Numbered from the stretch's first letter, positions 9,858 to 36,935 are shown. The stretch: 64,000 nucleotides of DNA from Candidatus Omnitrophota bacterium (GCA_029261055.1 JAJDCA010000018.1:18197-82196); one strand, 5' to 3'. Notes: generated by a model from the letters alone, not told the origin. Program-made: numbers and translations.

Positions 9858-12032
9858 CTATTTTATCAATCTATTAATATACCCTTGATCAACATTATAC
9901 CCAAAAGATTTAGCTTTTAGGGCATCTTGCAAGGCTTTTTCTCTCTGATTTTTTGCTTTATAAATCAAAGATCTTTTATAATATACCAAACCGTTTTGAG
10001 AATTCAACTTTATTATATTATTATAATCTTTTAATACATCTTCCATCCGATTCATTGCTAAATAAATATTGGCTCTTTGCCAATAGGCCCCTTCAAACCT
10101 GGGATTCATTTGAATGACTTTATCATAATCCGCTAACGCGAGCTGATATTTCCTTGTATTAAAATACGCAATGCCCCTATTGTAATACGCCTCCCAAAAA
10201 TGGGGGTTTAACTTTAAGGCATTTTTATAATCCTCTAAAGCGAGGGCATATTTTTTCATTTCAACATAGGCCGTACCTCTATTGCTGTAGGCCTTGATAT
10301 ACGTCGGGTTGATTTCCAGGGCTTTATTGTAATCGGCTAAAGCCGCATCATACTGTCCTTGTATTTTGTAAATGACACCTCTATTGCTGTAAGCGTCCTC
10401 TAAACGTGGATTGATTTCAATCGCTTTGTCATAGTCCGCCAAAGCCAAATTATTTTGTCCCATATGCCGATAGGCATTGCCTCTATTATTGTAGGCCTCA
10501 TCAAAATCAGGATTAAGCATTAACGCTTGATTAAAATTTTCTAAAGCGGTGTTGTATTGTTTTTTTGCACCGTAAGCCACACCCCGATTATTGTAAGCCT
10601 TAGCATGTTGCGAATCGATCGTAAGCGCTTTTGTGAAATACTCAATCGCTTGATTAAAATTACCATGCCTCAAAAAAGCCCCGCCCAAATTCATATGCGG
10701 CCTCAGCCTATGAGGTGATTTTTTCAATACGTCCTGCCAAAGAGTTACGCCATCCTGCCAAACGCTATTTCTCTGAAATGTTAAAAATGAACATGTCCCT
10801 ACAATCAAACTCAATACAATGACATATTTTTTGTAATCTTTCATCACATGCCGTAATCCCACCACCAACGCTATGGCAAAACCAACCATCGGTAAATAAA
10901 GCTTGTGTTCAAATATAACGTGACGTCGGGGAATAAAATTAGGTGCCAGCGTGAAAACAAACCAAAACATACCAAAAGCCATAAGTGTATTATATTTTTT
11001 AAACCTGATCGCAGCGACTAAAACACCTATCCAAGTGATCAAACTCAAACTCGTTGATAAGTCAAAAATATTTTGCGATAAAGAAAAATCATAATCGGGA
11101 TTCAAACCTATGGGGAAAAAAGAAATCCGCAAAAAAACCATCATCACGCGAAATTGCGTAAGAACATATTTTCCAAAAGTAATAACGTCTCCTACATGAG
11201 ATTCGGACATCTTCTGCGCGAACAACATACTCTTAACATTAAATGAAAATACTGCAGGAATGATAAGACAAAATAATAGTATCGTCCCCCAACCATACAC
11301 AGACCTCCGAGGTCTGTGTGCGGTTTCAGATGGCCGCAAAAACATAAACTCAATTAACAAAATCATCAACGGCAATGTAATCACAATCTCTTTCGTAAAC
11401 ATGCCAAGCACACCTGCAACAACGGCCCCGATAAAAAAATAATATTTGTACAGACGTGCCGATGCATCCTCCCTACCTTTCATGTACAAACACACGGCAA
11501 GAAGATAGAACATCGTCGCTAATGAAGCAAAACGTTGTGTAACATACGTCACCGCTTGCGTCTGCACTGGATGAGCGACGAAGATCAAAGCGACAAACAA
11601 TGCGACGGTCGAACCGTAAACAGACCTCGGGGGTCTGTTTGTAATTTTTTGTTGCAAACAGACCCCCGAGGTCTGTTTACGGCTTAAATTCCCCACAAGC
11701 ATCCCCACCAGCCACCACACCAACACCCCGCTCATTAAGTGAATCACCACGTTCGTCACATGATATCCGAAAACATCCAATTGATGAAAATGATAATTAA
11801 GGGCAAAAGAATAAAATGCCACAAAACGGGACGGTTGACTGAGCATACCCCATATCGAATCAAGGTGTGTAACATCACGAATGGCAGGATTACTGACGAT
11901 AAATATCAAGTCGTCAAAAACAAACTCATTTCGAAAAGTATTTGAATAAAGACCGATACCTAAAAAACATATCAGTAAAATAGGAAGAATTCTTGAGATA
12001 AAAATATTACTTATTTGGGGTGACTTCATCAA
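9858..12032 (-). CDS. Paralog 1 of 12: polytopic membrane PMT/TMTC-like (DUF1736-type, putative GT-C glycosyltransferase) protein with C-terminal TPR repeats
   Basis: N-terminal FVFDD...SQPSRFVAFYSFALNYHFH followed by more than 8 hydrophobic helices, then tandem 34-aa TPR units (AYNNRG..Y...G.Y..AL.DY.KAL.INP). Start uncertain; the ORF overlaps the next paralog. Confidence 0.6.
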   Translation of the reverse strand: MMKSPQISNIFISRILPILLICFLGIGLYSNTFRNEFVFDDLIFIVSNPAIRDVTHLDSIWGMLSQPSRFVAFYSFALNYHFHQLDVFGYHVTNVVIHLMSGVLVWWLVGMLVGNLSRKQTSGVCLQQKITNRPPRSVYGSTVALFVALIFVAHPVQTQAVTYVTQRFASLATMFYLLAVCLYMKGREDASARLYKYYFFIGAVVAGVLGMFTKEIVITLPLMILLIEFMFLRPSETAHRPRRSVYGWGTILLFCLIIPAVFSFNVKSMLFAQKMSESHVGDVITFGKYVLTQFRVMMVFLRISFFPIGLNPDYDFSLSQNIFDLSTSLSLITWIGVLVAAIRFKKYNTLMAFGMFWFVFTLAPNFIPRRHVIFEHKLYLPMVGFAIALVVGLRHVMKDYKKYVIVLSLIVGTCSFLTFQRNSVWQDGVTLWQDVLKKSPHRLRPHMNLGGAFLRHGNFNQAIEYFTKALTIDSQHAKAYNNRGVAYGAKKQYNTALENFNQALMLNPDFDEAYNNRGNAYRHMGQNNLALADYDKAIEINPRLEDAYSNRGVIYKIQGQYDAALADYNKALEINPTYIKAYSNRGTAYVEMKKYALALEDYKNALKLNPHFWEAYYNRGIAYFNTRKYQLALADYDKVIQMNPRFEGAYWQRANIYLAMNRMEDVLKDYNNIIKLNSQNGLVYYKRSLIYKAKNQREKALQDALKAKSFGYNVDQGYINRLIK
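11297..11319. repeat. 23-bp perfect palindrome, site 2 of paralog 1
   Basis: acacagacctc c gaggtctgtgt; encodes HRPRRSVYG. Confidence 0.8.
11614..11682. repeat. In-frame hairpin cassette, site 1 of paralog 1 (27-bp perfect stem, 15-nt loop)
   Basis: ccgtaaacagacctcgggggtctgttt / gtaattttttgttgc / aaacagacccccgaggtctgtttacgg; encodes NRPPRSVYGS loop. Confidence 0.85.
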
Positions 12033-14616
12033 AATATCGTTGATTAACTTGATAACCTAAAGATTGTGCCATAAGGGCATCCTCAAGAGCTTTTTCATTA
12101 TCACCTTTACTCTTATACGCAAGCGACCGTGCAAAATACCCCATACCTATCGTAGGGTTGATCTTTAAAAATTGCGTAAATTCTTCAATCGCCAGGTCAA
12201 ACTCCCCTCTTTCCCCATAAATGTTCCCCTTATTAAGATAGGTCACATAATTATTAGGATCAATATCCACCGCCTTATTAAATTCTTCTAAGGCCAAATC
12301 ATACTGTTTTTGCATTTTATAAATAACACCGCGGTTATTATAGGCCATCGCGTATTGTGGATTTAGTTCAACCGCTTTTGTGTAATCCTGCAAAGCCTTA
12401 TCCAGCATACCTTTTGATTTGTACACGACACCACGATTATTGTAAATTTCGCTGGCGTTTGGATCTATTTCCAAAGCCTTATCACAATTGGCCAAGGCCA
12501 AATCATACTGTTTCGTAGACTCAAACAAAACACACCGATTACTGTAAGACTCCATATATGTAGGATCAATCTCCAAAGCCTTGTCAAAATCATTCAAGGC
12601 GTCTTCATACTGACCTCTCATTTTATAAATAACACCACGATTATTGTAGGCCATAACATACTGAGAATCAATCTGGATGGCTTTATTGTAGTCCAAAAGA
12701 GCCAAATCATATTCTCCCTTTTTCTCATAAATAACGCCGCGGTTATAATACGCCTCTGTAAACCTAGGGTTAATACTCAAGGCCTTCTTGTAATCTTCAA
12801 GGATCAAATCATACTGGCCGGTTTCTTCATAAAGATTACTGCGGTTGCTGTACGCTTCTTCAAAATCAGGGTCGATCGCTAATGCTTTGTTAAAATCTTT
12901 AAGAGCCAACCCATGATTACCTTTTTTTTGATACACAATTCCCCGATTATTGTATGTTTTCACATAACTTCCATTAAACTCCAACGCCTTATTGTAATCA
13001 TCTAATGCCAAATCATCCTTATCCAAAGCTTCATAAACCACACCCCGGTCATTGTAAATTTCCGCAATGCTTGAATCCAAAGACATAGCTTTATTCAAAT
13101 CGGCAAGTGCAAGGTCATATTGTTTTTTATGACGATACGCATTCCCTCGATGATTGTAGGCCATGGTGTATTGACCATCCATTTCAATCACTTGGGTAAA
13201 ATGATCAATGGCATCGTCATATCGATCATATTCCAAATAAGCACTGCCTAAATTAATTTTCGGCCGTAACCGATTCGGCGATTTCTTCAAGGCATCCTCC
13301 CATAATGTAATGGGTGTCTGCCAAACCTTATTTCTTTGATAAGTCAAATAAGACAATATGATAAGAAAAATGCTCATACCTACGACAAATTTTTTAACGT
13401 CGCGAACATACTGAAAAAAACCAACACTTAAAACTAAAGAAAACCCAACCATAGGCAAATAAAGCTTGTGTTCAAAAATAACATGCCGCCGGGGAATAAA
13501 ATTTGGCGCTAAAGCCAGAAAAAACCAAAAAATCCCAAAAGCAATTAATAAACGCCGGGCCTTTATCTTCACGGCAAAGAGGAGACTGCCCATTACTAAA
13601 AGAAAACTTAACAACGTAGGCCATTCAAAAAAACTTTGGGACAATGGAAAATCATAATCGATATTCTGCCCCATCGGGAAAACGGCAAGCCGCAGAAAGG
13701 TTACCATCACACGAAACTGTGTCATCACATATTTCCCAAACGTAATCGTATCTCCTATGTGCGATTCCGACATTCGAGATGCAAACAAAGCATCTGAAAT
13801 ATTAAAAGAAAATACCGCGGGGATAATAAGCAAAAAAACCAAAACAACACTTATCAAAATTTTATTAACATGCTTCTTCTTGCTTTGGGCATCATAAAAA
13901 AACAAACCCTCAATTAAAAGAATCATCAAAGGCAAAGTAATGACAATTTCCTTAGAAAACATACCTAAAACAGCCGCCACAGCCGCTCCGAAAAAATAAA
14001 ATACAGACCTGCGACGCTTAGCCACCAATCGTCCGCTATCAGGCGTCAATATTTTAACTTTTTCTGAAGGCTGATGCCTGATGCCTGATATCTGACGCAT
14101 ACGCCCACTCACATACAAACAGACCGCTAATAAATAAAACAAGGTCGCTAAAGAAGCAAATCGTTGCGTAATATACGTCACCGCCTGCGTCTGCACCGGA
14201 TGGGCTACGAATATCAAGGCCGCAAACAACGGAATACTCGAACCGCCTCCGAACCTCGGGGGTTCGGATTTCCGAACCCCCGAGGTTCGTTTACGGTTAA
14301 GCGTCTCCATAAGCATCTTCACAAACCACCACACAAGCGTGGCCGTTATTAAATGAATCAGCAAATTTGTCAAATGATACGCAAATGCATCCAATTTATG
14401 AAAATGATAATTCAACGCAAATGAATAAAAAGCAACAAAACGGGACGGCTGACTGAGAAGATTCCAAATTTCTTTAACATTGCCTAAATTCTGAATAGGC
14501 TTATTGTTAACAATAAAAGGAATGTCATCAAATTGAAATGTGCTATGCAGCGTATTAGAGTAAAGAACGGCTCCTAAAAGCCATATGAGAAGAATAGGCC
14601 AATATTTTTTAATCAT
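12007..14616 (-). CDS. Paralog 2: PMT/TMTC-like membrane domain + TPR repeats
   Basis: Same architecture; TFQFDD, SQPSRFVAFYSFALNYHFH; about 14 TPR units. Confidence 0.6.
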   Translation of the reverse strand: MIKKYWPILLIWLLGAVLYSNTLHSTFQFDDIPFIVNNKPIQNLGNVKEIWNLLSQPSRFVAFYSFALNYHFHKLDAFAYHLTNLLIHLITATLVWWFVKMLMETLNRKRTSGVRKSEPPRFGGGSSIPLFAALIFVAHPVQTQAVTYITQRFASLATLFYLLAVCLYVSGRMRQISGIRHQPSEKVKILTPDSGRLVAKRRRSVFYFFGAAVAAVLGMFSKEIVITLPLMILLIEGLFFYDAQSKKKHVNKILISVVLVFLLIIPAVFSFNISDALFASRMSESHIGDTITFGKYVMTQFRVMVTFLRLAVFPMGQNIDYDFPLSQSFFEWPTLLSFLLVMGSLLFAVKIKARRLLIAFGIFWFFLALAPNFIPRRHVIFEHKLYLPMVGFSLVLSVGFFQYVRDVKKFVVGMSIFLIILSYLTYQRNKVWQTPITLWEDALKKSPNRLRPKINLGSAYLEYDRYDDAIDHFTQVIEMDGQYTMAYNHRGNAYRHKKQYDLALADLNKAMSLDSSIAEIYNDRGVVYEALDKDDLALDDYNKALEFNGSYVKTYNNRGIVYQKKGNHGLALKDFNKALAIDPDFEEAYSNRSNLYEETGQYDLILEDYKKALSINPRFTEAYYNRGVIYEKKGEYDLALLDYNKAIQIDSQYVMAYNNRGVIYKMRGQYEDALNDFDKALEIDPTYMESYSNRCVLFESTKQYDLALANCDKALEIDPNASEIYNNRGVVYKSKGMLDKALQDYTKAVELNPQYAMAYNNRGVIYKMQKQYDLALEEFNKAVDIDPNNYVTYLNKGNIYGERGEFDLAIEEFTQFLKINPTIGMGYFARSLAYKSKGDNEKALEDALMAQSLGYQVNQRYFDEVTPNK
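14038..14098. repeat. Heptamer (ctgaNNN) repeat / inverted-repeat cassette, site 0 of paralog 2
   Basis: ctgatgc ctgatgc ctgatat ctgacgc preceded by an inverted copy (cgctatcaggcgtca); encodes PSEKVKILTPDSGRL. Confidence 0.55.
14249..14289. repeat. In-frame hairpin cassette, site 1 of paralog 2
   Basis: ccgaacctcgggggttcgga tt tccgaacccccgaggttcg; encodes SEPPRFGG. Confidence 0.8.
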
Positions 14617-19499: not shown

Positions 19500-19503
19500 T
19501 AAA

Positions 19504-28585: not shown

Positions 28586-28688
28586 TGTTTAAAGTTTAGA
28601 GATTCTGCTTATGATGTCAAGAAGAAATACGGCCAGAACTCCCCGAAAGCCCTAAAATAAACGGCAGTTGCGTGATAGGCAAATAGAA

Positions 28689-30611
28689 TTAATTTTGTGC
28701 TGCCACCGCTTTTTCGCGATTATCTTTAGCTTCTTGATTGGTAGGGTCGATTTGCAGGGCTTTATCAAAATCTTCAATAGCTAAATCAAGGCGGCCGCTG
28801 AGGCCGTGGGTCGCGCCGCGGTTGTTGTACGCCTGCAGGTAATTCGGCTTAATGGCTAAAGCTTGCGTGTAATCTTTAATGGCTAAATCGTATTTTTCCT
28901 TTAATCTTAATGTGTTTGCTCTATTGTAATAAGCTTCAGCGTAGTTGGGCTTAATCCTGATGGCACGGCTAAAATCAGCAATGGCCAGATTGTGGCGCGC
29001 CTGCAATCCATACACAAAACCGCGGTTATTAAATGCCTCATAATAATCACGATTAATTGTCACCGCCTTTGTAAAATCCGTAACGGCTTGATCGTAATCA
29101 TGCAGCTGATGATGCACATTGCCTCTATTATTGTAGGCCTCAGAATATTCGGGGTTAATGATGAGCGCCTGATCCAAATAATGCTTCGCCTGGGCATAGG
29201 CCCCGCGACTTAAATACGCGCAACCCAAATTAAAATGCGGTCGCGCTTTTTGGGGCGACTTCGCTACGACATCTGCCCACAAGGCCACTGGATCAGCCCA
29301 AATTTTATTACGTTGCACCGTCAAATAGGCAAAGACGGCAATGATCACGCAACATACTGCTACGTACTTTTTAATATTCTTCATCACCGCAAAAAGCCCT
29401 GCGCTTAGCGCAATAGAAAACCCGACTAACGGCAAATAAAGTTTGTGCTCAAAAATAATATTACGCCGCGGAATAAAATTGGGTGTCAGTGTCAGAAGAA
29501 ACCAAAATAGGCCAAAAGCCACCAGAGGATGCCGTTTGCGTATTTTCCAGGCAGCCACCAGGAGGCTGAAAATCAGGACGATGCTCAACAGAACCGACCA
29601 TTCAAAAATACTTTGCGACAAAGCAAAATCATAATCCAAATTTTGCCCGATGGGAAAAAGCGTTAGGCGAATAAACGTCGCCAACACACGAAACTGCGTT
29701 AGGACGTAAGGCCAAAACGTAATCACATCCCCAACGTGCGACTCCGACATTTTTGCTCCAAATAATAATCCGGAAATATTAAAAGAAAATACGGCGGGAA
29801 TGATTAGACAAAACAACAGTAGACAAACCGTAAACGAACCTCGTAGGTTCGGAAATCCGAACCTACGAGGTTCGTTTAGGGTTAACTCCACCCAAATAAT
29901 AGTCAACGGCAACGTAATCACAATTTCTTTAGTAAACATACCCAGAATAGCGGCAACGGCAGCTCCAAGAAAATAAGGAATACGTCTCCAAGTTTTAGTC
30001 ATCCGTCGTTTGTCATCAGTCGCCAGTATTTTGGCTTTTTCTGAAAGCTGAAGACTGACGTCTGATAGCTGATGGCTAACACGTCCCTTCATGTAAAGAC
30101 ACACCACCAACAAATAAAACATCGTCGCCAAAGATGCAAATCGCTGCGTAATGTACGCTACGGCTTGAGTCTGTACAGGATGACACAAAAAAATCAACGC
30201 GGCAAACAACGCGACGGTCGAACCGTAAACACACCCCGGGGGTCTGTTTACGGTACAAGACCTCAAACAGACCCCCGGGGTGTGTTTACGGTTACTAGCC
30301 CCAACAAGCATCCCCCCCAACCACCAGACCAACAGAGCATTAATCACATGAATCACGACATTCGTCATATGGTACCCAAACACATCCAGCCCATGAAAAT
30401 AATAATTCAACGCAAACGAATAAAAGGCCACAAACCTCGACGGCTGCTCCAAATATGTCGCAATCGATTTGACATTCCCTAAACTCCGAATACTTTCATT
30501 AGTGACAATAAAAACTTGATCATCAAATTGGAAAGGCGCCTGCAATGTATTGGCATACATCCATCCCCCTATGATCACAATAAGGGCGATGGCTAAAAAT
30601 TTCTTAATCAT
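28689..30611 (-). CDS. Paralog 9: PMT/TMTC-like membrane domain + TPR repeats
   Basis: PFQFDD, EQPSRFVAFYSFALNYYFH. Start refined to MIKKF (ATG 30611), preceded by GGAGG. Confidence 0.6.
   Translation of the reverse strand: MIKKFLAIALIVIIGGWMYANTLQAPFQFDDQVFIVTNESIRSLGNVKSIATYLEQPSRFVAFYSFALNYYFHGLDVFGYHMTNVVIHVINALLVWWLGGMLVGASNRKHTPGVCLRSCTVNRPPGCVYGSTVALFAALIFLCHPVQTQAVAYITQRFASLATMFYLLVVCLYMKGRVSHQLSDVSLQLSEKAKILATDDKRRMTKTWRRIPYFLGAAVAAILGMFTKEIVITLPLTIIWVELTLNEPRRFGFPNLRGSFTVCLLLFCLIIPAVFSFNISGLLFGAKMSESHVGDVITFWPYVLTQFRVLATFIRLTLFPIGQNLDYDFALSQSIFEWSVLLSIVLIFSLLVAAWKIRKRHPLVAFGLFWFLLTLTPNFIPRRNIIFEHKLYLPLVGFSIALSAGLFAVMKNIKKYVAVCCVIIAVFAYLTVQRNKIWADPVALWADVVAKSPQKARPHFNLGCAYLSRGAYAQAKHYLDQALIINPEYSEAYNNRGNVHHQLHDYDQAVTDFTKAVTINRDYYEAFNNRGFVYGLQARHNLAIADFSRAIRIKPNYAEAYYNRANTLRLKEKYDLAIKDYTQALAIKPNYLQAYNNRGATHGLSGRLDLAIEDFDKALQIDPTNQEAKDNREKAVAAQN
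29826..29883. repeat. In-frame hairpin cassette, site 2 of paralog 9 (same type as paralog 8 site 2; 1 mismatch)
   Basis: aaccgtaaacgaacctcgtaggttcgga aa tccgaacctacgaggttcgtttagggtt. Confidence 0.8.
30005..30083. repeat. Heptamer ctgaNNN repeat / inverted-repeat cassette, site 0 of paralog 9
   Basis: ...tcatcagtcgccag tattttggcttttt ctgaaag ctgaaga ctgacgt ctgatag ctgatgg...; encodes SEKAKILATDDKRR. Confidence 0.55.
30223..30291. repeat. In-frame hairpin cassette, site 1 of paralog 9 (27-bp stem, loop acggtacaagacctc)
   Basis: ccgtaaacacaccccgggggtctgttt ... aaacagacccccggggtgtgtttacgg. Confidence 0.85.
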
Positions 30612-32631
30612 TCGGTAAAACCTCCATGGCCTTACGCACCCAAGCACGTTGTTGCTGAGCTTTAGCGTAACCGGGATCAATCGCTAAAGCACGGTTGTAA
30701 TCTTCCAAGGCCAAGGCGTATTGTTTTTGGTGTGCATAAATATTACCCCGGTTAAAATACGCTTCTTTAAAATTCAGATTAATCGCAATCGCCTTATTGT
30801 AATCCCACAAAGCTAAATCCTGCAACTGTTGCGCCGCAAAAATACCACCACGATTGCTGTAAGCTTGCGCGTTACGCGGATCTATTTTAATCGCAGCACC
30901 ATAATCTTTAAGGGCCTTTTCATATTGCCCTAAAGAAAAATACACATTCGCCCGGTTAACGTATCGACTGGCATTCGCCGGATTCAAAACAATCGCCGCA
31001 TCAAAATCGACCAAAGCCAAATCATATTTCTTTTGTATCTGATAAATGACCCCCCGGTTATTATGTGCAATAGCCGATTCCGAATCAATCAAAAGCGCCT
31101 GCGTAAAATCAGCCAAAGCTAAATCATAACGTCGTTCCATTTGATAAACAGATCCCCGATTATTGTAGGCCGACACATTATTGGGATTAAGCATCAAAGC
31201 TTGATTGAGATGCGTCAAAGCCAAACCCGTATCCCTCCTCTGCAAATAATACACCTTCCCTAAATTATTATGCGGCCGCGATTTGTGCGGCGACTTTTGT
31301 ACCACATCTTCCCACAACGTAATTTCATTGTTCCAAACTTTATTTCGCTGAAACGTCAAACACGAAAAAATAATAATCACACCAGACACAACGGAAACAA
31401 ACATTCTGGAATTTCTAATTAAAGAATACATCCCTGCTGTCAACGCCAAACACAGCCCAACGCTTGGCAAATACATGCGATGTTCAAATATGACATCCGC
31501 AATCGGAATAAAACTGGACTCCACCGACAGCGTAAGGAAAAACCAAATAATGCCTAGTGTCACAAGCTTATTACGTGTACGCATCCAAATCGCAAATCCA
31601 AATAACACAATACATGTCAGCATACTTAACAAAGTCGGCCATTCAAAAATACTGTACGCCAAAGGAAAGTCATAATCAAGATTCTGTCCAACTGGAAACA
31701 GGAATAATTTTAAATACGTTACCAGCACTTTAAACTGCGTCAAAAAGTACACCGATCGTGTCATTGTCGCCACGCCACTGGCTTCAGACATACTTTCCTG
31801 AGCCAACACTCCCGACAAATTAAACGAATACAAACAAGGAATAATTACAGCAAATGACAATATCAAAACAATGTAATACCATGGGACATCAATAATTCTT
31901 TTCGATCCTTCCCTCCTAAAAAAATAAAACTCCAACACAAGAATCATAAACGGCAGCGTAAACACAATTTCCTTACTGAACATACCCAGCACAGCCGCGA
32001 TCGCAGCTCCCACAAAACGTACAGACGCGATTAATCGCGTCTCTGCACATCGTCCTTTCATGTAAAGACACACCGAAAGCAAATAAAACATCGTTCCCAA
32101 CAGCGTAAACCGCTGCGCAATGTACGTCACCGCCTGCGTCTGCACGGGGTGACACAAAAAAATAAACGTTGCACACAGAGCGACGGTCGAACCGTAAACA
32201 CACCTCGGGGGTGTGTTTTTGATTTTTCGCCGTAAACACACCCCCGAGGTGTGTTTACGGTTAATGCTCCGAACACCCATCCCCACCAACCACCACACAA
32301 GCAAAGCATTAATCACATGAATCCCCACATTCACCACATGATACCCAAACACATCCAACTTATGAAAATGGTAATTCACCGCAAAACTCAAATACGGAAT
32401 CAAGCGTCGCGCCGACACCCCGAGTGTATGATCCATCAAATGCTTCGTCGTATTGGTCCATGCAATTGCAATATTAAAAACATCCCTGATCTGCGGATTT
32501 TCCACAATGACACGCGTATCATCAAAATGGAAAGAACTATGAAAAGTGTTAGCGTAAATAGCTCCGCCTAAAATACAAATAATGAATACAAAAAATAATT
32601 TGTTAATTCTCATATTTAAATATTTAATCAT
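30604..32631 (-). CDS. Paralog 10: PMT/TMTC-like membrane domain + TPR repeats (divergent N-terminal motif SFHFDDTRVIVENPQIRD)
   Basis: Same architecture; shares long near-identical stretches with paralog 11 (SVESSFIPIADVIFEHRMYLPSVGLCLA). Start uncertain: 32631, 32613 or 32685. Confidence 0.55.
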   Translation of the reverse strand: MIKYLNMRINKLFFVFIICILGGAIYANTFHSSFHFDDTRVIVENPQIRDVFNIAIAWTNTTKHLMDHTLGVSARRLIPYLSFAVNYHFHKLDVFGYHVVNVGIHVINALLVWWLVGMGVRSINRKHTSGVCLRRKIKNTPPRCVYGSTVALCATFIFLCHPVQTQAVTYIAQRFTLLGTMFYLLSVCLYMKGRCAETRLIASVRFVGAAIAAVLGMFSKEIVFTLPFMILVLEFYFFRREGSKRIIDVPWYYIVLILSFAVIIPCLYSFNLSGVLAQESMSEASGVATMTRSVYFLTQFKVLVTYLKLFLFPVGQNLDYDFPLAYSIFEWPTLLSMLTCIVLFGFAIWMRTRNKLVTLGIIWFFLTLSVESSFIPIADVIFEHRMYLPSVGLCLALTAGMYSLIRNSRMFVSVVSGVIIIFSCLTFQRNKVWNNEITLWEDVVQKSPHKSRPHNNLGKVYYLQRRDTGLALTHLNQALMLNPNNVSAYNNRGSVYQMERRYDLALADFTQALLIDSESAIAHNNRGVIYQIQKKYDLALVDFDAAIVLNPANASRYVNRANVYFSLGQYEKALKDYGAAIKIDPRNAQAYSNRGGIFAAQQLQDLALWDYNKAIAINLNFKEAYFNRGNIYAHQKQYALALEDYNRALAIDPGYAKAQQQRAWVRKAMEVLPND
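32023..32042. repeat. 20-bp perfect ATTAAT palindrome, site 0 of paralog 10
   Basis: agacgcgattaatcgcgtct. Confidence 0.75.
32192..32260. repeat. In-frame hairpin cassette, site 1 of paralog 10 (27-bp perfect stem)
   Basis: ccgtaaacacacctcgggggtgtgttt / 15-nt loop / aaacacacccccgaggtgtgtttacgg. Confidence 0.85.
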
Positions 32632-34516
32632 ATCCACCCATACAATCTGCGTACATACTTTCAAGCATTTTACCCTTACGATCAATCTCTTTGACTTTAA
32701 CAGTGTTACCCAACGCTTGACAAGTATTCACAAGATGAAGATAAGATTTCTTGAAATCAGGATTTATTTTTAAAGCCTTTTTGTAATATTTCATTGCCAA
32801 TGCATGTTGATGTTTGGCGCCATAAATTAACCCAATATTATCGTAAGTCGTCGTCAAATTGGGATTTAACTTAACCGCCATTTCGTAATCAGCCAAGGCT
32901 TTGTCATACTGCTGCGTAAGATGATATGCCGTCCCTCGATTATTGTACGTTACGGCAGATGTTGGGTTTAAAACCAATGCCCGATCATAATCTCTAATGG
33001 CCAAACCATACCTCCCCTTTTTCTCAAAAAAATGCCCTCTATTGGTGTATGCTTTAACATGGTAAGGATCAATATGTAAGGCCTTATTGAAATGCGCTAG
33101 TGCTAAATCATATTTACTTTCTTTCAAATACGCGGCCCCTAAAATACCGTGACCTCTTGCTTTATTTGGCGATTTTTTCACCACATCTTCCCACAACGTC
33201 ATTTCATTGTTCCAAACTTTGTTTCGCTGAAACGTTAAATAAGAAAAAACAATCACAATCACACACGCAACCGTTACAAGCGCTCTGGAATTTTTTATGA
33301 AAACTAACAGCCCAGCTGTAAACGCCAAACACAGCCCAACGCTTGGCAAATACATGCGATGTTCAAATATGACATCCGCGATCGGAATAAAACTGGACTC
33401 CACCGACAACGTCAGAAAAAACCAAATAATGCCCAACGAAACAAGGCGATGACGTGAAAACAATTTTACGGCTGCACCTAACAATACAACGCACATCATC
33501 ATACTCAAAAAAGTCGACCATTCAAAAATACTTTGCGCCAAAGGAAAATCATAATCAAGATTTTGCCCGACTGGAAACAGGAATAACTTTAAATAAGCCA
33601 ACACCACTTTAAACTGCGTCAAAAAATAAACCGACCGCGTCATCGCCGCCACGCCACTGGATTCAGACACACTTTCCTGAGCCAACACTCCCGACAAATT
33701 AAACGAATACAAACAAGGAACAATTACAGCAAATGACAATATCAAAACAATGTAATACCACGGAACATCAATAATTCTTTTCGATCCTTCCTTTCTAAAA
33801 AAATAAAACTCCAACACAAGAATCATAAACGGCAGCGTAAACACAATTTCCTTACTGAACATACCCAGCACAGCCGCGACAGCAGCCCCCACAAAACGTA
33901 CAGACGCGATTAATCGCGTCTCTGCACATCGTCCTTTCATGTAAAGACACACCGAAAGCAAATAAAACATCGCCCCCAACAACGTAAACCGCTGCGCAAT
34001 GTACGTCACCGCCTGCGTCTGCAGAGGATGACACAGAAAAATCAAGGCTGCACACAAAGCGACTGTCGAACCGTAAACGAACCTCGGGGGTTCGGATTTC
34101 GGGAATTCAGATTTCCGAACCCCCGAGGTTCGTTTACGGTTAAAAATCTTCACCACCATCCCCACCAACCACCACACAAGCAAAGCATTCACCACATGAA
34201 TCCCTACATTCACCACATGATACCCAAACACATCCAACTTATGAAAATGGTAATTCACCGCAAACGTCAAAAACGGAATAAGCCGTCGTGCAGACAACCC
34301 CTGCGTATGCTCAAGCAAATGCTTGGTGGTATCCATCCACACAACCTTAATATTTTGAATATTTCTAATCTGCGGATTCTCCACAATGACACGCGTGTCG
34401 TCAAAATGAAAAGTGCTGTGGAAGGTGTTGGCGTAAATAATAATGCCGAGGCAAACAAGAAAAATAGCAGGAAAAAACTTTTTAATCCCCTGACATAATG
34501 TTAGATGGACTTTCAT
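32624..34516 (-). CDS. Paralog 11: PMT/TMTC-like membrane domain + TPR repeats
   Basis: TFHFDDTRVIVENPQIRN; close duplicate of paralog 10 in the membrane domain. Start uncertain: 34516, 34555 or 34576. Confidence 0.55.
   Translation of the reverse strand: MKVHLTLCQGIKKFFPAIFLVCLGIIIYANTFHSTFHFDDTRVIVENPQIRNIQNIKVVWMDTTKHLLEHTQGLSARRLIPFLTFAVNYHFHKLDVFGYHVVNVGIHVVNALLVWWLVGMVVKIFNRKRTSGVRKSEFPKSEPPRFVYGSTVALCAALIFLCHPLQTQAVTYIAQRFTLLGAMFYLLSVCLYMKGRCAETRLIASVRFVGAAVAAVLGMFSKEIVFTLPFMILVLEFYFFRKEGSKRIIDVPWYYIVLILSFAVIVPCLYSFNLSGVLAQESVSESSGVAAMTRSVYFLTQFKVVLAYLKLFLFPVGQNLDYDFPLAQSIFEWSTFLSMMMCVVLLGAAVKLFSRHRLVSLGIIWFFLTLSVESSFIPIADVIFEHRMYLPSVGLCLAFTAGLLVFIKNSRALVTVACVIVIVFSYLTFQRNKVWNNEMTLWEDVVKKSPNKARGHGILGAAYLKESKYDLALAHFNKALHIDPYHVKAYTNRGHFFEKKGRYGLAIRDYDRALVLNPTSAVTYNNRGTAYHLTQQYDKALADYEMAVKLNPNLTTTYDNIGLIYGAKHQHALAMKYYKKALKINPDFKKSYLHLVNTCQALGNTVKVKEIDRKGKMLESMYADCMGGYD
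33902..33921. repeat. 20-bp perfect ATTAAT palindrome, site 0 of paralog 11
   Basis: agacgcgattaatcgcgtct. Confidence 0.75.
34069..34141. repeat. In-frame hairpin cassette with internal partial duplication, site 1 of paralog 11
   Basis: aaccgtaaacgaacctcgggggttcgga tttcgggaattcagattt tccgaacccccgaggttcgtttacggtt; encodes KSEFPKSEPP (duplicated KSEP). Confidence 0.8.
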
Positions 34517-36935
34517 TATTGATTTGATATCCCAAAGATTGCGCCTTAAAAGCATTTTGCTGGGCCTGGGAAGCATTCCCCATTGCTTTGTAAATTAAGG
34601 CACGCTGGTAATAGGCCCCAGCATATTTCGGATTGATCGTTAAAACTTTACCATAATCAGCCAAGGCAAGACGGTATTTTTTCAACTGAGTGTACACAAC
34701 GGCACGGTTGTAATACGCCTCCCAAAAATCCGGATTAATTTTAATCGCTTTATGAAAATCTTTCAAGGCCGCAGCATGCTGCTTCAAGGCCAACTGAACC
34801 AATCCTCTATTATTGTACGCTCTCAAATACGATGAATTAATTTTAATAGCCTGGCTGTAATTTTCCAAAGCCGCGGCGTAATCTTTTTTTAATGTGTACA
34901 CAAGCCCACGATTACTCAAAAATTCTTCCTTTTTATTAGGAGACTGCCTTAATGCCTGGGTGTAATCAACCAAAGCTAAATCATATTGCCCTTGCGCTTT
35001 GTACATATTGCCCCGGTTACTGTAAAACTGGGGCATGTCCGGATTAATCGTAATCGCCTGCTTAAAATCCGCCGTCGCCAAATCATATTGACGTTTAACT
35101 TTGCGAATAATCCCGCGATTACTGTACGCCGACGCTAACAAAGGATCATTTTTAATCGCTTTATTGTAATCACTCAACGCCTGATCATACCGCCTTTGAT
35201 CCTTGTAAAAATTCCCGCGATTATTGTACGACTCAGCATTGTTGGGATCCAATTGAATACTTTGATTAAAATCTGCCAAAGCCAAATCATGCAGCCCCTT
35301 CTTTTGATACACAACGCCACGATTGTCATACCCTTTAACATTGCCAGCATCCATTTCAATGGACTTCGTCAAATATTCAAGAGCCAAATCATATTCACCT
35401 CTGGCAAAATAGGAATATCCTAAATTAAGATACGGCCGCATCTTACCGGGAGATTTCCGAACAACATCACTCCACAAAGAAACTGCATTTTGCCACACCC
35501 TGTTTCTTTGAATCGTTAAAGAAGAATAGACACTCAAAATAATCAACATGCTAACCACACATTTCTTTTTATTATTAAAACTTAAATACAATAAACACGG
35601 TAATATCATACAAAACCCGATGGATGCTAAATACAATTTATGCTCAAAAATAATATGCCGCCTTGGCACCAAATTGGCTGCCATCGTCAGGAAAAACCAA
35701 AATATCCCAAAAGAAATCACCGCATGCCGATGCCTTAATCTCATTGCTAACATTACCAACCCCGTCAAAAAAACAAAACTCAACACAACCGGCCATTCAA
35801 AGATTCCTTGCGACAATGGAAAATCATAATCAAGATTTTGCCCGATGGGAAAAACCAATAAACGAATAAAAACCACAAAAACACGTGCTTGCGTTAAAAA
35901 ATATTTCCCAAACGTAATCACATCCCCCGCATGCGACGCCGACATCTTTGGCCCGAACAATATCCCGAAAACATTAAACGAAAAAACGGCGGGGATGATC
36001 AAACAAAACAATAATAAAAATACCCAACCGTAAACCGTAAACACACCCCGGGGGTCTGTTTGAGGTCTTGTACCGTAAACAGACCCCCGGGGTGTGTTTA
36101 CGGTTCCAGTCGATCGCAAAAACATAAACTCAACAAGTAAAATCATCAAAGGCAACGTAATCACAATTTCTTTGGTGAACATCCCAAGGACAGCAGCCAC
36201 CGCAGCTCCGAAGAAATAAAAAATGGGCCGCCAATTCTTAGACGTCAGTCGTCTGCTATCAGCTGTCAGTATTTTGTTTTTTTCTGAAGACTGATGACTG
36301 ATGGCTGATGACTGATAGCTAATACGTCCCTTTATGTAAAAACACAACGAAAGTAAATAAAACAATGTCGCCAAAGACGCAAACCGCTGACTAATGTACG
36401 TCACCGCCTGAGTCTGAACAGGATGGGCCACAAAAAGCAATGCGGCAAACAAACCGTAAACGAACCCAGAAAGTTTGCGTTCGCAAACTCTCACGGTTCG
36501 TTTACGGTTAAAAGTCTTCACCAACATCCCCACCAACCACCACACCAACAAAGAATTAACCACATGAATCACAAGATTCGTCACATGATACCCAAAAACA
36601 TTTAACCCATGAAAATGATAATTTAACGCAAAGGTGAGAAAAGCGACATAACGTGAAGGCTGGCCGAGAATACTGCCAAACGTAGTAATATTTTTGAAAT
36701 CTTTAATGTAAGAATTACCAGCAACAAATTTTACATCATCAAATTGAAAAGGACTGTGGAGGGTATTTGCATAAAGGGCAACACCAAGAAGGCCTATGAC
36801 AAAAAAATAGTGACAGAAACCGTTTTTTAAAAAACCTTCACTTATTTTCTTAAAAAAGGGTCTGTCACTATTTTTTTGGCTGAACAATTTTTTGGGCCAA
36901 TCTCTTAATTCAAATAATTTTTTAACTCTGTCCAA
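34482..36935 (-). CDS. Paralog 12: PMT/TMTC-like membrane domain + TPR repeats
   Basis: PFQFDD, GQPSRYVAFLTFALNYHFH; about 12 TPR units; long N-terminal extension. Confidence 0.6.
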   Translation of the reverse strand: MDRVKKLFELRDWPKKLFSQKNSDRPFFKKISEGFLKNGFCHYFFVIGLLGVALYANTLHSPFQFDDVKFVAGNSYIKDFKNITTFGSILGQPSRYVAFLTFALNYHFHGLNVFGYHVTNLVIHVVNSLLVWWLVGMLVKTFNRKRTVRVCERKLSGFVYGLFAALLFVAHPVQTQAVTYISQRFASLATLFYLLSLCFYIKGRISYQSSAISHQSSEKNKILTADSRRLTSKNWRPIFYFFGAAVAAVLGMFTKEIVITLPLMILLVEFMFLRSTGTVNTPRGSVYGTRPQTDPRGVFTVYGWVFLLLFCLIIPAVFSFNVFGILFGPKMSASHAGDVITFGKYFLTQARVFVVFIRLLVFPIGQNLDYDFPLSQGIFEWPVVLSFVFLTGLVMLAMRLRHRHAVISFGIFWFFLTMAANLVPRRHIIFEHKLYLASIGFCMILPCLLYLSFNNKKKCVVSMLIILSVYSSLTIQRNRVWQNAVSLWSDVVRKSPGKMRPYLNLGYSYFARGEYDLALEYLTKSIEMDAGNVKGYDNRGVVYQKKGLHDLALADFNQSIQLDPNNAESYNNRGNFYKDQRRYDQALSDYNKAIKNDPLLASAYSNRGIIRKVKRQYDLATADFKQAITINPDMPQFYSNRGNMYKAQGQYDLALVDYTQALRQSPNKKEEFLSNRGLVYTLKKDYAAALENYSQAIKINSSYLRAYNNRGLVQLALKQHAAALKDFHKAIKINPDFWEAYYNRAVVYTQLKKYRLALADYGKVLTINPKYAGAYYQRALIYKAMGNASQAQQNAFKAQSLGYQINNESPSNIMSGD
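36035..36103. repeat. In-frame hairpin cassette, site 2 of paralog 12 (the paralog 9 site-1 element in inverted orientation)
   Basis: ccgtaaacacaccccgggggtctgttt gaggtcttgtaccgt aaacagacccccggggtgtgtttacgg; the loop is the reverse complement of the loop at 30250..30264. Confidence 0.85.
36241..36325. repeat. Heptamer ctgaNNN repeat with inverted copy, site 0 of paralog 12
   Basis: gtcagtcgtctgctatcagctgtcag tattttgttttttt ctgaaga ctgatga ctgatgg ctgatga ctgatag; encodes SEKNKILTADSRRL. Confidence 0.6.
36452..36509. repeat. Nested-palindrome cassette, site 1 of paralog 12
   Basis: aaccgtaaacgaacc cagaaagtttgcgttcgcaaactctca cggttcgtttacggtt. Confidence 0.75.

Follow-up and report, generated by a model that had tools for sequence, protein, structure and literature searches.

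How do perfect palindromes come to lie inside the reading frames of a tandem gene array, and do they serve the proteins that carry them? The question is raised by a 64-kb stretch of DNA from an Omnitrophota bacterium (the window), in which 12 tandem minus-strand paralogs (P1 to P12) encode PMT-like GT-C and TPR proteins whose variable loops, here called sites 1, 0 and 2, hold such repeats. The original prediction implied a cassette-based system for varying these loops. We consider it probable that permissive cytoplasmic loops have been colonised in frame by REP/SDR/RPE-like repeats, spread by gene conversion. The "hypervariable loops" are thus most likely tolerated selfish DNA and not a designed variation system, since the elements lodged in them are of a kind usually found between bacterial genes. 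The host genes are as follows.

P1: 9858-12032, minus strand
P2: 12007-14616, minus strand
P3: 14609-16981, minus strand
P4: 16959-19547, minus strand
P5: 19504-22026, minus strand
P6: 22004-23989, minus strand
P7: 24106-26655, minus strand
P8: 26777-28585, minus strand
P9: 28689-30680, minus strand
P10: 30604-32685, minus strand
P11: 32624-34576, minus strand
P12: 34482-36935, minus strand

The host proteins and their variable loops

All 12 open frames are intact and keep every invariant catalytic residue. The proteins have a GT-C transmembrane fold, and the acidic FxFDD motif of the first extracytoplasmic loop (loop 1) has F33, D36 and D37 invariant in 57 sequences. With PMT/TMTC-type GT-C enzymes they share an acidic DD motif in their first outer loop, and with TMTC a C-terminal TPR domain. 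Unlike PMT/TMTC, the host genes form a 12-fold tandem array and have no Pfam match to PMT, PMT_2 or DUF1736 (hmmscan of the transmembrane domain alone, E ≤ 1), the only hit being a chance one to DUF6132. We class them as PMT-like glycosyltransferases of the GT-C type whose TPR domains lie in the periplasm; a polyprenyl-phosphate sugar would be the donor expected of this class. Directly upstream of the window lie GT2, DUF2304 and GT2 genes (L127), and the named matches of the window's FabF are all Omnitrophica or Omnitrophota (74–80% identity).

Throughout 57 homologues the transmembrane helices are essentially fixed in length, and length variation falls almost wholly in four loops: site 1, site 0, site 2 and CL4. 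The only substantial exception in an extracytoplasmic loop is a 10-aa insert in EL1 of P10/P11. Mean net charges are +1.8 (site 1), +3.2 (site 0), +3.0 (site 2) and +3.2 (CL4), which by the positive-inside rule predicts that the four loops are cytoplasmic; we take them to correspond to CL1–CL4 of the 11-TM PMT topology seen in the Pmt1/Pmt2 structure. Site 0 is accordingly the predicted second cytoplasmic loop (CL2) and site 2 the predicted third (CL3), an assignment that is supported, not proven. In the protein alignment, site 0 (between KGR and F.GAA, columns 229–266) and site 2 (after ..LIE.., columns 301–338) are each homologous across the paralogs, as the claim of homologous indel positions requires. 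The further proposal that the sites share the cytoplasmic face is likewise supported, not proven, by the invariant FxFDD loop 1 and the confinement of length variation to four positive loops. Each site comes directly after a helix pair.

Inserts on one face only, in genes that are all open and catalytically conserved, are what might be expected if interchangeable cassettes diversified the protein by varying its cytoplasmic surface, for example for different cytoplasmic partners or donors. However, restriction to one face is expected from purifying selection alone, because catalytic periplasmic loops and helices cannot accept insertions.

Families of repeat at the three sites

Every one of the 12 paralogs has a cassette at site 1.

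P1 site 1: 11612-11684, minus strand, 73-nt cassette
P2 site 1: 14241-14298, minus strand, 58-nt cassette
P3 site 1: 16579-16648, minus strand, 70-nt cassette with perfect 35-nt arms
P4 site 1: 19109-19181, minus strand, 73-nt cassette
P5 site 1: 21645-21702, minus strand, 58-nt cassette
P6 site 1: 23581-23638, minus strand, 58-nt cassette
P7 site 1: 26256-26328, minus strand, 73-nt cassette
P8 site 1: 28177-28249, minus strand, 73-nt cassette
P9 site 1: 30221-30293, minus strand, 73-nt cassette, source or sister of the inverted P12 site-2 copy
P10 site 1: 32190-32262, minus strand, 73-nt cassette, different from that of its sister P11
P11 site 1: 34069-34141, minus strand, 73-nt cassette
P12 site 1: 36452-36509, minus strand, 58-nt cassette, inner part turned over and still palindromic

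At site 2, elements are found in five paralogs.

P1 site 2: 11291-11325, minus strand, single 35-nt hairpin unit AACCGCACACAGACCTCGGAGGTCTGTGTATGGTT (-21.3 kcal/mol, z -6.1)
P4 site 2: 18791-18818, minus strand, 28-nt element whose 20-nt core, AGCCGCGATTAATCGCGGCT at 18795-18814, is perfect
P8 site 2: 27857-27914, minus strand, 58-nt cassette with perfect 28-nt arms (100% complementary; -50.5 kcal/mol, z -12)
P9 site 2: 29826-29883, minus strand, 58-nt cassette with arms 96% complementary
P12 site 2: 36033-36105, minus strand, 73-nt cassette (-68.8 kcal/mol)

The cassettes of sites 1 and 2, including the 73-nt cassette at P1 site 1, are one family (family a), a 35-nt hairpin unit usually dimerised to perfect palindromes of 58–73 nt (AACCGTAAAC-NNACC-YCGRG-GGTNN-...). 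The P1 site-2 unit, with a perfect stem of 11 and a loop of 1 at 11297-11319, is half of a full cassette. The P8 site-2 cassette reads LTVNEPRRFGNPNLRGSFTV, with the centre GTAG-GTTCGGAAATCCGAAC-CTAC, and differs from that of P9 at 3 of 60 aligned positions (the 58-nt cassette and two flanking bases). For the four elements of this family at site 2, predicted folding energies lie between -21 and -69 kcal/mol, with z between -6 and -12. Hairpin cassettes had been predicted at this site in P1, P8, P9 and P12, and all four are present, the limits in P12 being 36033-36105 and not 36035-36103. The remaining paralogs had been described as empty here, which does not hold for P4: its palindrome differs from the one at site 0 by a compensatory C/G change, and the same variant occurs in another metagenome contig (L087) flanked by GTAG/CTAC.

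Site 0 carries two further families. The first (family b) is a 28-nt REP-type palindrome, GTAG-AGACGCGATTAATCGCGTCT-(C/G)TAC, which in the window copies consists of GTAG, the 20-mer and GTAC.

P1 site 0: 11448-11476, minus strand, decayed GTAG...GTAC element GTAGGGAGGATGCATCGGCACGTCTGTAC
P3 site 0: 16387-16435, minus strand, 28-nt GTAG palindrome interrupted by a 21-nt hairpin nested in it
P4 site 0: 18938-18965, minus strand, 28-nt GTAG palindrome with 1 mismatch in its 20-nt core (18942-18961)
P5 site 0: 21468-21495, minus strand, diverged copy GGTGGGACGCGATTAATTACGTTTGTAC
P8 site 0: 28006-28033, minus strand, GTAGAGACGCGATTAATCGCGTCTGTAC, encoding VETRLIASV
P10 site 0: 32019-32046, minus strand, GCAGAGACGCGATTAATCGCGTCTGTAC
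P11 site 0: 33898-33925, minus strand, identical to the P10 element

The 20-mer encodes ETRLIASV, as had been read from the sequence, and has 6 matches at up to three mismatches versus 0 in shuffles. A perfect copy had been claimed for P3, P4, P8, P10 and P11; it is perfect in P8 (28010-28029), P10 (32023-32042) and P11 (33902-33921), whereas P4 has its one mismatch and P3 is interrupted. The nested hairpin in P3 (CCTGCCTGCCGGCAAGGCAGG, 16404-16424) encodes LPAGKAG and has an intergenic relative in an Omnitrophota MAG (L002, 6267-6288). The diverged copy expected in P5 was found, and P1, said to be empty, has a decayed element. The palindrome occupies a loop of normal length, and so looks like a replacement rather than a simple insertion.

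The second (family c) comprises heptamer-array inverted repeats, bringing the kinds of repeat in CL1–CL4 to at least three.

P2 site 0: 14025-14097, minus strand, (TCAGNNN)x4, AAAAAG..AAAATA centre and inverted CTGANNN units (hairpin z -2.1)
P7 site 0: 26081-26110, minus strand, TGGTCAG direct repeat, with two tandem units, one degenerate unit and one more
P9 site 0: 29997-30074, minus strand, heptamer element (hairpin z -1.1)
P12 site 0: 36240-36317, minus strand, heptamer element with the clearest inverted partner (hairpin z -3.1)

The TCAGNNN pattern has 16 matches against 0.11 expected, which bears out the arrays with inverted partners proposed for P2, P9 and P12, as well as the direct repeat in P7. 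The hairpins of the three arrays are weak (z = -1.1 to -3.1), and the P7 repeat gave no hairpin on folding (z = -0.4).

In structure models, the peptides of the site-1 and site-2 cassettes are low-confidence loops (pLDDT <50 to 77, the fold being at 88–90). A confident helical extension is modelled for the peptide of the site-0 palindrome, and a helical extension with pLDDT 63–75 for the P9 heptamer peptide. Three paralogs conserve the heptamer peptide SEK.KIL..D. The ETRLIAS peptide is retained in a 13th paralog (P0071, in L004), where synonymous changes have destroyed the palindrome, and therefore a resident peptide can come under selection. The helix, the retention of the palindrome peptide in P0071 and the conserved heptamer peptide speak for protein-level diversification, and the predicted disorder at sites 1 and 2 speaks against it.

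Behaviour of the cassettes as DNA

The cassette at P12 site 2 is an inverted copy of that at P9 site 1, identical at 73/73 positions, and is read in the +1 frame. The cassette reading frame at site 2 is one off from that at site 1; the P9 site-1 orientation put in the site-2 frame has two stop codons, and reading the P8/P9 site-2 variant in the site-1 frame brings up a stop codon. Only stop-free combinations of frame and orientation are present. Across these frames and orientations the same cassette DNA gives unrelated peptides. Across 27 arm pairs from 16 cassettes, arm pairing is 97.9%, with changes on both sides in 15 pairs; this level was reached by 0 of 500 shuffles, and slid controls collapse. 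Conservation in the cassettes is at the level of base pairing and not of codons. Unrelated peptides from identical DNA and the lack of codon conservation both weigh against protein-level diversification, which we hold to be quite improbable.

The window has 32 perfect hairpins with a stem of at least 9, versus 2.6 in shuffles, and the paralogs hold 20 of them in 42% of the window. Such hairpins might serve the host as nucleic acid, with coding as a by-product: as intragenic RNA terminators or attenuators, as RNase III or ribosome pause sites, or as DNA break or recombination hot spots driving gene conversion and module shuffling. The stems of 28–35 perfect pairs (-50 to -69 kcal/mol) and the position of each site after a helix pair fit such a role, and the P8/P9 site-2 cassettes and P10/P11 palindromes score as a hairpin with a T-rich tail on the coding strand. 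However, the T-tails are inconsistent among copies and the hairpins have no match in Rfam. G-U occurs in 4 of 432 cells of the cassette arms, no commoner than other mismatches, which argues against selection on RNA pairing. We regard a host role of this kind as unlikely.

The paralogs are mosaics: their backbones are 55–79% identical, while cassettes are 88–100% identical between non-sisters. The sisters P10/P11 are mutually nearest across the transmembrane domain (67–100% identity, mostly >80%) and differ exactly at site 1; P7/P8 similarity stops at site 0, and P8/P9 identity reaches 92–94% only around site 2. High-identity tracts start or stop at the sites, a coincidence that may also reflect recombination hot spots. 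The palindromes might alternatively be old, inherited vertically from the array ancestor, immobile, and kept symmetric by repair or template switching. Site 1 is filled in every paralog, there is no consistent target-site duplication at the 17 cassette junctions or the P3 nested insertion, and neither the 64-kb window nor about another 24 kb of sample SRR15505515 (L001, L004 and L127, of which only L001 and L127 overlap the window) yielded a transposase or RAYT. Against this stand the exact inverted copy at a non-homologous site, the different cassettes of sister paralogs, and the lack of a site-2 cassette in most paralogs and in 44 of 45 further homologues examined; we find vertical inheritance barely credible.

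Under colonisation by selfish repeats, the elements would enter as DNA, and selection would retain only copies in length-tolerant, positively charged cytoplasmic loops, of which only those without a stop codon in frame would survive. Copies would then be spread or swapped among the paralogs by duplication and short-tract gene conversion, and residents would decay or be partly deleted. The encoded peptides would be passengers, presumably neutral. The nested P3 hairpin, the low-confidence peptides of sites 1 and 2 and the length tolerance of the four loops favour this reading. Against it count the normal loop length at site 0, the peptide kept in P0071, the terminator-like cassettes, and the lack of target-site duplications and of a transposase in the DNA scanned.

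The same repeats elsewhere and their known relatives

Related repeats also lie between genes in the window itself.

41394-41433: intergenic repeat related to the core of the site-2 cassette (ACCTCGTAGGT...ACCTACGAGGT), flanked by two VWA/Bat genes
46186-46213: intergenic 28-nt GTAG-type REP GTAGGGGCGGTTCGCGAACCGCCCGTAC, with the architecture of the site-0 element
39288-39359: two intergenic 28-nt GTAG-type REPs (GGGCATGATAAATCATGCCC core) in an inverted, REPIN-like arrangement

The inverted pair belongs to a GTAG family other than that of site 0, whose window copies are singletons and not in the inverted-doublet arrangement of REPINs/BIMEs. Every window copy of the AACCGT cassette and of the ATTAAT palindrome (7–8 of the site-0 type) is inside the paralogs, and therefore the case that they move in this genome is drawn from what is seen in other genomes and from the inverted copy. 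A cassette lies between genes in the Omnitrophota MAG, and sites 1 and 2 of a homologue from another metagenome (L003) hold the same cassette family. The REP GTAGGGGCGGTTCGCGAACCGCCCGTAC is in frame in GT-C/TPR genes of a further Omnitrophota genome (L005), where two adjacent homologues carry this GTAG REP in CL1 and CL5. Palindrome enrichment in this protein family thus recurs in a second genome with different palindromes; it could reflect more than tolerance, and it is a further point for a nucleic-acid role.

The site-0 palindrome occurs in at least 120 unrelated metagenome contigs (GC 0.26–0.56), with 136 copies among the matches listed, none of which is hosted by a homologue of the GT-C/TPR family. 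Outside the search pattern, GTAG is on the 5' side of 101 of these copies, CTAC on the 3' side of 90, and both flank 78. Among the same matches, single contigs carry 2–4 copies, 51 copies fall within open reading frames of 200 codons or more and 60 within frames of <100 codons, the two open frames of the 28-mer are used 27:24 in the 51 in-ORF copies, and compensatory variants (G/C or C/G) make up 4 of the 136. Genes hosting it in frame include GyrA, RecG, RecJ, CobA/HemD and a DNA methylase. That the same families are intergenic or in unrelated genes elsewhere counts against a host role at either the nucleic-acid or the protein level, and against vertical inheritance. Orthologous GyrA genes have two different 28-nt palindromes of equal length at one site, and therefore in-place symmetric turnover happens, a point for vertical inheritance. 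Heptamer arrays lie beside the 28-mer in 9/136 listed copies versus 7/621, a 6-fold enrichment (p = 6e-4).

A Y1/HUH protein is encoded at 8 of the 120 listed palindrome loci (0.8 Mb). All five of these proteins scanned against NCBIfam match NF047646, REP-associated tyrosine transposase, with E 1e-11 to 1e-16, under the 80-bit cutoff; it is the only NCBIfam match for four, and the fifth (L062) also matches YraN models in its C-terminal extension. The L093 protein matches Pfam Y1_Tnp (32.7 bits). Among the matches listed, the palindrome is inside the RAYT-like gene at 7 of the 8 loci, just after the HUH motif and in either frame. This association is again difficult to reconcile with immobile, inherited palindromes, and we infer RAYT-type single-strand hairpin transposition as the insertion mechanism of family (b). 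A bolder proposal, possible but in our opinion doubtful, is that 28-nt GTAG-N20-CTAC palindromes are cross-phylum ultra-small mobile elements that travel in their own RAYT-like gene after the HUH motif, insert into or overwrite loops of essential and membrane proteins in frame, are homogenised per genome, such that orthologous sites carry the genome's variant, and in Omnitrophota act jointly with the hairpin cassettes as recombination hot spots that shuffle modules among the tandem GT-C paralogs. If so, palindromes and cassettes together would be a repeat-driven generator of glycosyltransferase diversity.

Several known repeats resemble parts of this picture. Classical REPs are reportedly extragenic and flank a RAYT gene. 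Like REPs and REPINs, both the site-0 element and the repeats between the window's genes consist of GTAG plus a short palindrome, one inverted pair is present, and the same 28-mer is associated with RAYT-like genes, in other genomes only. Unlike classical REPs, this 28-mer is perfectly palindromic and lies in frame within host genes and within the RAYT-like gene itself, with the same sequence across very different genomes. Compared with a MITE, which has terminal inverted repeats and a target-site duplication, the window elements are inverted repeats throughout, and 17 cassette junctions have no consistent duplication. Cyanobacterial small dispersed repeats (SDRs, SDR1–8) are said to be hairpins of 21–27 nt with compensatory changes and nested insertions, embedded in heptamer (STRR) arrays, and reportedly confined to heterocystous cyanobacteria. 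By that description the site-0 element resembles them, as a hairpin of 28 nt with compensatory changes, a nested insertion (P3) and an association with heptamer arrays. The plasmid matches of the 28-mer are also all cyanobacterial (Nostoc, Calothrix, Halotia, Kovacikia). Unlike SDRs, it is not confined to heterocystous cyanobacteria, being found in Omnitrophota and on a Bacteroidota-like contig with a T9SS sorting domain (L057). PMC5861425 refers to the SDR study (Elhai et al., 2008, Genome Res 18:1484) and to a point on SDR5/HIP1.

Rickettsia palindromic elements (RPEs) are about 100–150 bp long and in frame in many unrelated genes of one genome, each with a conserved peptide-coding frame (Ogata et al. 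2000/2002, in the part of PMC10969869 that summarises them). As described there, they share with the window elements the character of palindromic selfish repeats in frame in protein genes, at fold-compatible positions and with several families per genome. The window elements differ from that account in being 20–73 nt long, in using two frames and both orientations, and in being concentrated in one 12-member family of an Omnitrophota host, only in cytoplasmic loops. Finally, direct repeats of TAACTGA and related heptamers occur in Beggiatoaceae, Cyanobacteria and Bacteroidetes, mostly intergenic and near start codons (MacGregor, 2015, PMC4679880). The window's arrays also contain CTGA, and both have a patchy cross-phylum spread and no known transfer mechanism (PMC4679880); unlike those heptamers, the TCAGNNN units have variable last bases, form an inverted repeat and are in frame within a gene.

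Palindromic elements in the loops of the GT-C array

In each of the 12 tandem paralogs (P1–P12), a membrane domain of ~430 aa at the N-terminus is followed by TPR repeats at the C-terminus. The elements at three loop positions, site 1, site 0 and site 2 (loops CL1, CL2 and CL3), were inspected by codon-level read-out of the DNA beside the protein alignment. The array, its site-2 elements and the intergenic palindromes are as follows.

9858–36935, minus strand: 12 tandem paralogs of 602–869 aa
11297–11319: site-2 hairpin of P1
18795–18814: perfect 20-nt palindrome AGCCGCGATTAATCGCGGCT at site 2 of P4
27857–27914: site-2 hairpin of P8
29826–29883: site-2 hairpin of P9
36033–36105: site-2 hairpin of P12
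6440–6470: intergenic palindrome
39288–39359: intergenic palindrome
43108–43169: intergenic palindrome
46186–46213: intergenic palindrome
47237–47264: intergenic palindrome
52150–52235: intergenic palindrome
52715–52742: intergenic palindrome
56234–56296: intergenic palindrome

The four hairpins predicted at site 2 were all found, with the limits of that in P12 corrected from 36035–36103. Their arms are perfect or near-perfect, and predicted folding energies of −21 to −69 kcal/mol lie 6–12 SD under those of shuffled sequences. The original prediction erred in leaving site 2 empty in the other paralogs, as the P4 palindrome occupies it, and in leaving site 0 of P1 empty, where a decayed GTAG...GTAC element is present. 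At site 0, P8, P10 and P11 carry the ATTAAT-centred palindrome in perfect form, while P4 has it with one mismatch and P5 as a diverged copy (six matches at ≤3 mismatches in the window vs 0 in shuffles); the copy claimed for P3 is there but is interrupted by a nested 21-nt hairpin. The TCAGNNN arrays of P2, P9 and P12 and their inverted partner are confirmed (the pattern occurs 16 times vs 0.11 expected), with only weak self-complementarity (z −1.1 to −3.1). The direct repeat of P7 is a plain TGGTCAG repeat. Perfect hairpins with a stem of ≥9 number 32 in the window vs 2.6 in shuffles, 20 of them within paralogs, and Rfam assigned no family at its gathering score across the whole window. An assembly or adapter artefact was ruled out, since copies vary, decay and nest in intact genes, and the site-0 element also occurs on finished cyanobacterial plasmids.

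Three kinds of element can be distinguished. One cassette family occupies site 1 of all 12 paralogs and site 2 of P8, P9 and P12, with a half unit in P1; its unit is a 35-nt hairpin, AACCGTAAAC-NNACC-YCGRG-GGTNN-GTTTACGGTT, which is mostly doubled into a palindrome of 58, 70 or 73 nt. A relative of the cassette core is intergenic (41394–41433). The site-0 palindrome is in full a 28-mer, GTAG + AGACGCGATTAATCGCGTCT + GTAC, whose architecture and length are shared by the intergenic repeats GTAG-GGGCGGTTCGCGAACCGCCC-GTAC and GTAG-GGGCATGATAAATCATGCCC-GTAC. The third kind measures 73–78 nt and has TCAGNNN heptamers and their inverted complement flanking an A-rich centre. Most intergenic spacers examined in the window hold a GC-rich palindrome; several of those listed belong to the 28-nt GTAG...GTAC repeats, which occur singly, as an inverted pair and as a direct pair, and there are further long palindromes unrelated to these repeats. 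The GGGCATGAT..ATCATGCCC repeat also occurs as a variant, GGGTTTGATAAATCAAACCC, at 52115–52134 in the first codons of a polysaccharide deacetylase ORF (51324–52145). This variant is either a further in-frame copy or the sign of a miscalled start codon.

The cassettes behave as DNA. The P12 site-2 cassette is an exact inverted copy (73/73) of the P9 site-1 cassette, and since the frame at site 2 is one off that at site 1, the peptides are unrelated (NRKRTSGV... vs TVNEPRRF...). Read in the frame of site 2, the P9 orientation would yield two stop codons, and the site-1 frame of the P8/P9 site-2 variant contains one; the combinations of frame and orientation found among the cassettes observed are all free of stops. 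Across 27 arm pairs from 16 distinct cassettes, 97.9% of positions are paired, both sides have changed in 15 pairs, and G-U occurs in 4 of 432 cells. These values were reached by 0 of 500 shuffles, and the signal is lost on sliding the partners. Strict Watson-Crick pairing without wobble points to DNA palindromy and not to selection on RNA structure. The loop elements are thus DNA-level entities, not peptide cassettes, and the peptides of sites 1 and 2 form low-confidence loops in predicted structures; protein-level diversification by cassettes is quite improbable.

A function of the hairpins as nucleic acid (terminator, RNase III site, pause site or recombination hot spot) is also unlikely, if less so: some copies carry terminator-like tails and high-identity tracts between paralogs end at the sites, but G-U pairs are lacking in the cassette arms and the elements occur in other contexts too. 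T-rich tails follow in-gene hairpins on the coding strand at 27863–27908, 29831–29878, 32023–32042 and 33902–33921, with intrinsic-terminator-like scores, and could cause premature termination within P8–P11.

The cassettes also conflict with the gene tree. DNA identity is 55–79% between paralog backbones and 88–100% between cassettes of non-sisters. P10 and P11 are mutual nearest neighbours over the membrane domain (67–100% identity, mostly >80%) except exactly at site 1, where P11 matches P2/P5/P6 (84–96%) and P10 matches P4/P1. The similarity of P7 and P8 ends at site 0, and P8 and P9 reach 92–94% identity around site 2 only. This conflict fits repeated insertion, short-tract gene conversion, or both; that the elements are purely vertical relics is scarcely credible.

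Loop topology and the origin of the insertions

Pfam assigned no family to the transmembrane domain of the paralogs. As TPR matches dominated both Foldseek with the full-length P8 model and a PDB-sequence profile search, the transmembrane domain was modelled alone. Topology was read from 57 aligned sequences, the 12 paralogs and 45 homologues from other genomes, in which the first-loop FxFDD motif never varies (57/57). Transmembrane helix lengths are essentially constant, as are the outer loops except for an insert in the first (EL1) of P10/P11; that insert apart, length variation is confined to site 1, site 0, site 2, the fourth loop CL4 and the N-terminus. In the protein alignment, sites 0 and 2 both fall at homologous columns, as had been supposed. 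Mean net charges are +1.8 for site 1, +3.2 for site 0, +3.0 for site 2 and +3.2 for CL4. PMT proteins (Pmt1/Pmt2 structure) have 11 helices, with the N-terminus inside and the C-terminus outside, and TM7 and TM8 are joined by a large outer loop. A cytoplasmic position of the four variable loops is indicated by this PMT topology, by the positive-inside rule and by the periplasmic location of the catalytic DD loop in GT-C enzymes, which supports the claim that the sites share one face. An alternative with TM5/6 as one helix, helix 279–298 spanning the membrane and site 2 outside is disfavoured, because the conserved TKE turn would then be buried, a +3 loop would lie outside, and the PMT topology would be contradicted.

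The P10/P11 subfamily has the sole substantial outer-face indel, 10 aa inserted into the first periplasmic loop (32392–32460 and 34271–34339), and also a VESS variant ahead of the FEH motif, as do the homologues P0007 and P0009. CL4 of P7 has a 30-aa insert (25540–25630) without palindrome or repeat, and CL4 inserts are found in two homologues of other genomes, P0022 and P0005, as well.

We consider it probable that selfish repeats of the REP, SDR (cyanobacterial small dispersed repeat) or RPE (Rickettsia palindromic element) kind colonised the cytoplasmic loops in frame and then spread among the paralogs. The repeats would arrive as DNA, selection would keep them only in cytoplasmic loops and in stop-free combinations of frame and orientation, and duplication and gene conversion would carry them through the tandem paralogs, with the encoded peptides as passengers. 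Striking "hypervariable cassettes" of a protein family can be the footprint of selfish DNA sieved by membrane-protein topology, a cautionary case in which insertions persist solely in cytoplasmic, positively charged, length-tolerant loops.

REP-RAYT systems (RAYT, REP-associated tyrosine transposase) and the SDR and heptamer repeats of cyanobacteria are known. PMC5861425 supports the cyanobacterial repeats in part, cross-phylum heptamer repeats have already been described (PMC4679880), and in-frame palindromic selfish DNA is known in Rickettsia (PMC10969869). Beyond Rickettsia, in-frame palindromes are here seen in an uncultured phylum, Omnitrophota, with elements as small as 21–28 nt. New are this host phylum and very small element size, the stacking of three element families in cytoplasmic loops encoded by a GT-C array of 12 genes, and one 28-nt palindrome common to Omnitrophota, cyanobacteria and other lineages that resides in RAYT-like and essential genes.

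The 28-nt palindrome and its relatives in other genomes

Metagenomes were scanned with the 20-nt core of the 28-mer, allowing two free positions. At least 136 copies were found in at least 120 contigs, with a GC content of 0.26–0.56 among the matches listed, to which the following counts also refer. Outside the search pattern, GTAG flanks at least 101 copies on the left and CTAC at least 90 on the right; at least 78 are perfect 28-nt palindromes, at least 10 have the GTAG...GTAC form of the window, and at least four are compensatory G/C or C/G variants, that of P4 site 2 among them. Open frames of ≥200 codons hold at least 51 copies (27 in the VETRLIASL frame, 24 in the RRDAINRVST frame) and frames of <100 codons at least 60. 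The hosts include GyrA, RecG, RecJ, CobA/HemD, a histidine kinase, a DNA methylase, an NB-ARC/TPR protein, a GT2 and a Bacteroidota-like T9SS-tailed protein; none of the 120 contigs encodes a GT-C family homologue. The share with a tandem heptamer array no more than 45 nt away is 9/136 for the copies and 7/621 for control positions (p = 6e-4), which mirrors the alternation of palindrome and heptamers at site 0. Copies on plasmids are from cyanobacteria only (Calothrix, Kovacikia, Halotia, Nostoc), one of them within an NRPS gene. A full-text literature search for the palindrome GCGATTAATCGC and its peptides returned nothing relevant.

Two rounds of tblastn over the 120 loci (0.8 Mb), the first with a RAYT query and the second with its best match, found Y1/HUH proteins in eight of the loci listed, with the motifs YFITICT, MPNHVHGIL and WQSRFxDHIIRNE. 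All five proteins scanned matched the NCBIfam REP-associated tyrosine transposase (E 1e-11 to 1e-16, under the equivalog cutoff), which was the only NCBIfam match in four; the fifth, L062, adds YraN models in a C-terminal extension. One Y1/HUH protein passed Pfam Y1_Tnp. In seven loci the palindrome sits inside the Y1/HUH gene, right behind the HUH motif, with both frames used:

L093, 3101–3739: palindrome-bearing RAYT-like gene
L122, 1963–2562: palindrome-bearing RAYT-like gene
L110, 2795–3442: palindrome-bearing RAYT-like gene
L048, 511–1173: RAYT-like gene with tandem palindrome copies
L062, 190–1137: palindrome-bearing RAYT-like gene; its transposase-like domain and a YraN-like nuclease domain share a stop-to-stop open frame
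L049: palindrome-bearing RAYT-like gene
L100: palindrome-bearing RAYT-like gene

Given this tie, the site-0 element is best classed as a REP-type repeat linked to a RAYT-like enzyme and unusually resident in the enzyme's own gene. A RAYT-like gene is absent both from the window and from a further ~24 kb of its sample (SRR15505515), of which only L001 and L127 overlap the window. The presence of an exact 28-nt REP-type palindrome in Omnitrophota, cyanobacterial plasmids and many metagenomic lineages is a testable lead, and offers a handle on inter-phylum spread of REP-like elements and their entry into coding sequence.

Palindromes may also be replaced in place. The GyrA of one locus (L075) has the 28-mer GTAGAGACGCGATTAATCGCGTCTCTAC at 4023–4050, in a blade-connecting loop. 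The pair failed as an insertion footprint, as the closest GyrA (L128, gene 581–1348, 73% identity) is not empty but has a different perfect 28-nt palindrome, GTAGAGACGGGGCATGCCCCGTCTCTAC, at the same codons, with equal outer arms and length and a different centre. Overwriting or symmetric remodelling at constant length is thus possible. Such turnover fits site 0, where the palindrome lies within a loop of ordinary length, and also a 13th paralog (P0071), in which the ETRLIAS peptide is retained and the palindrome erased by synonymous changes.

The cassette family is narrowly distributed: in a species-representative genome collection that lacks the source genome, its pattern had one match only, in an Omnitrophota MAG, where it is intergenic and lies directly 3' of a Tex-like gene. 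A syntenic locus from another metagenome (L003) encodes a homologue with the cassette family at sites 1 and 2; its orthology to P12 was rejected, as identity is 44.5%, no higher than with other paralogs. Two neighbouring homologues of a third Omnitrophota genome carry another GTAG palindrome (VGAVREPPL) in frame, with copies at site 1 and in the last cytoplasmic loop; there are no more than these three copies in 19.5 kb. The loops are thus recurrent sinks for each genome's own palindromes. For annotation, VETRLIASL, RRDAINRVST, VGAVREPPL and NRKRTSGVRKSEPPRF in proteins are to be read as translated repeats, not motifs.

Gene neighbourhood and host

The array is flanked as follows; outside it, all but one long ORF (≥150 aa) of the window are on the minus strand.

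Upstream: secretin and fatty-acid synthesis genes
Downstream: peptidoglycan-binding protein, GH15 enzyme and MoxR/DUF58/BatA-type operon

The host is an Omnitrophota bacterium: among named proteins, the window's FabF matches Candidatus Omnitrophica/Omnitrophota only (74–80% identity), and the paralogs have thousands of homologues, mostly in Omnitrophota. DNA just past window position 1 (L127, 3051–5918) carries GT2, DUF2304, methyltransferase and GT2 genes and a second secretin; the GT2/DUF2304/GT2 genes are plausible polyprenyl-phosphate-sugar donor genes for the array. Three ORFs of >1000 aa (48020–51277, 53745–56963 and 60561–63914) had no Pfam match at E ≤ 1e-5. The MoxR-DUF58-BatA/BatB operon is split by a YhcG/DUF1016 PD-(D/E)XK nuclease gene (44064–45146) that holds the palindrome TTTTGCAACAGGCTGTTGCAAAA twice (44766–44788 and 44838–44863), and two genes from it lies a second ORF with the DUF1016 N-terminal domain only (46225–47229).
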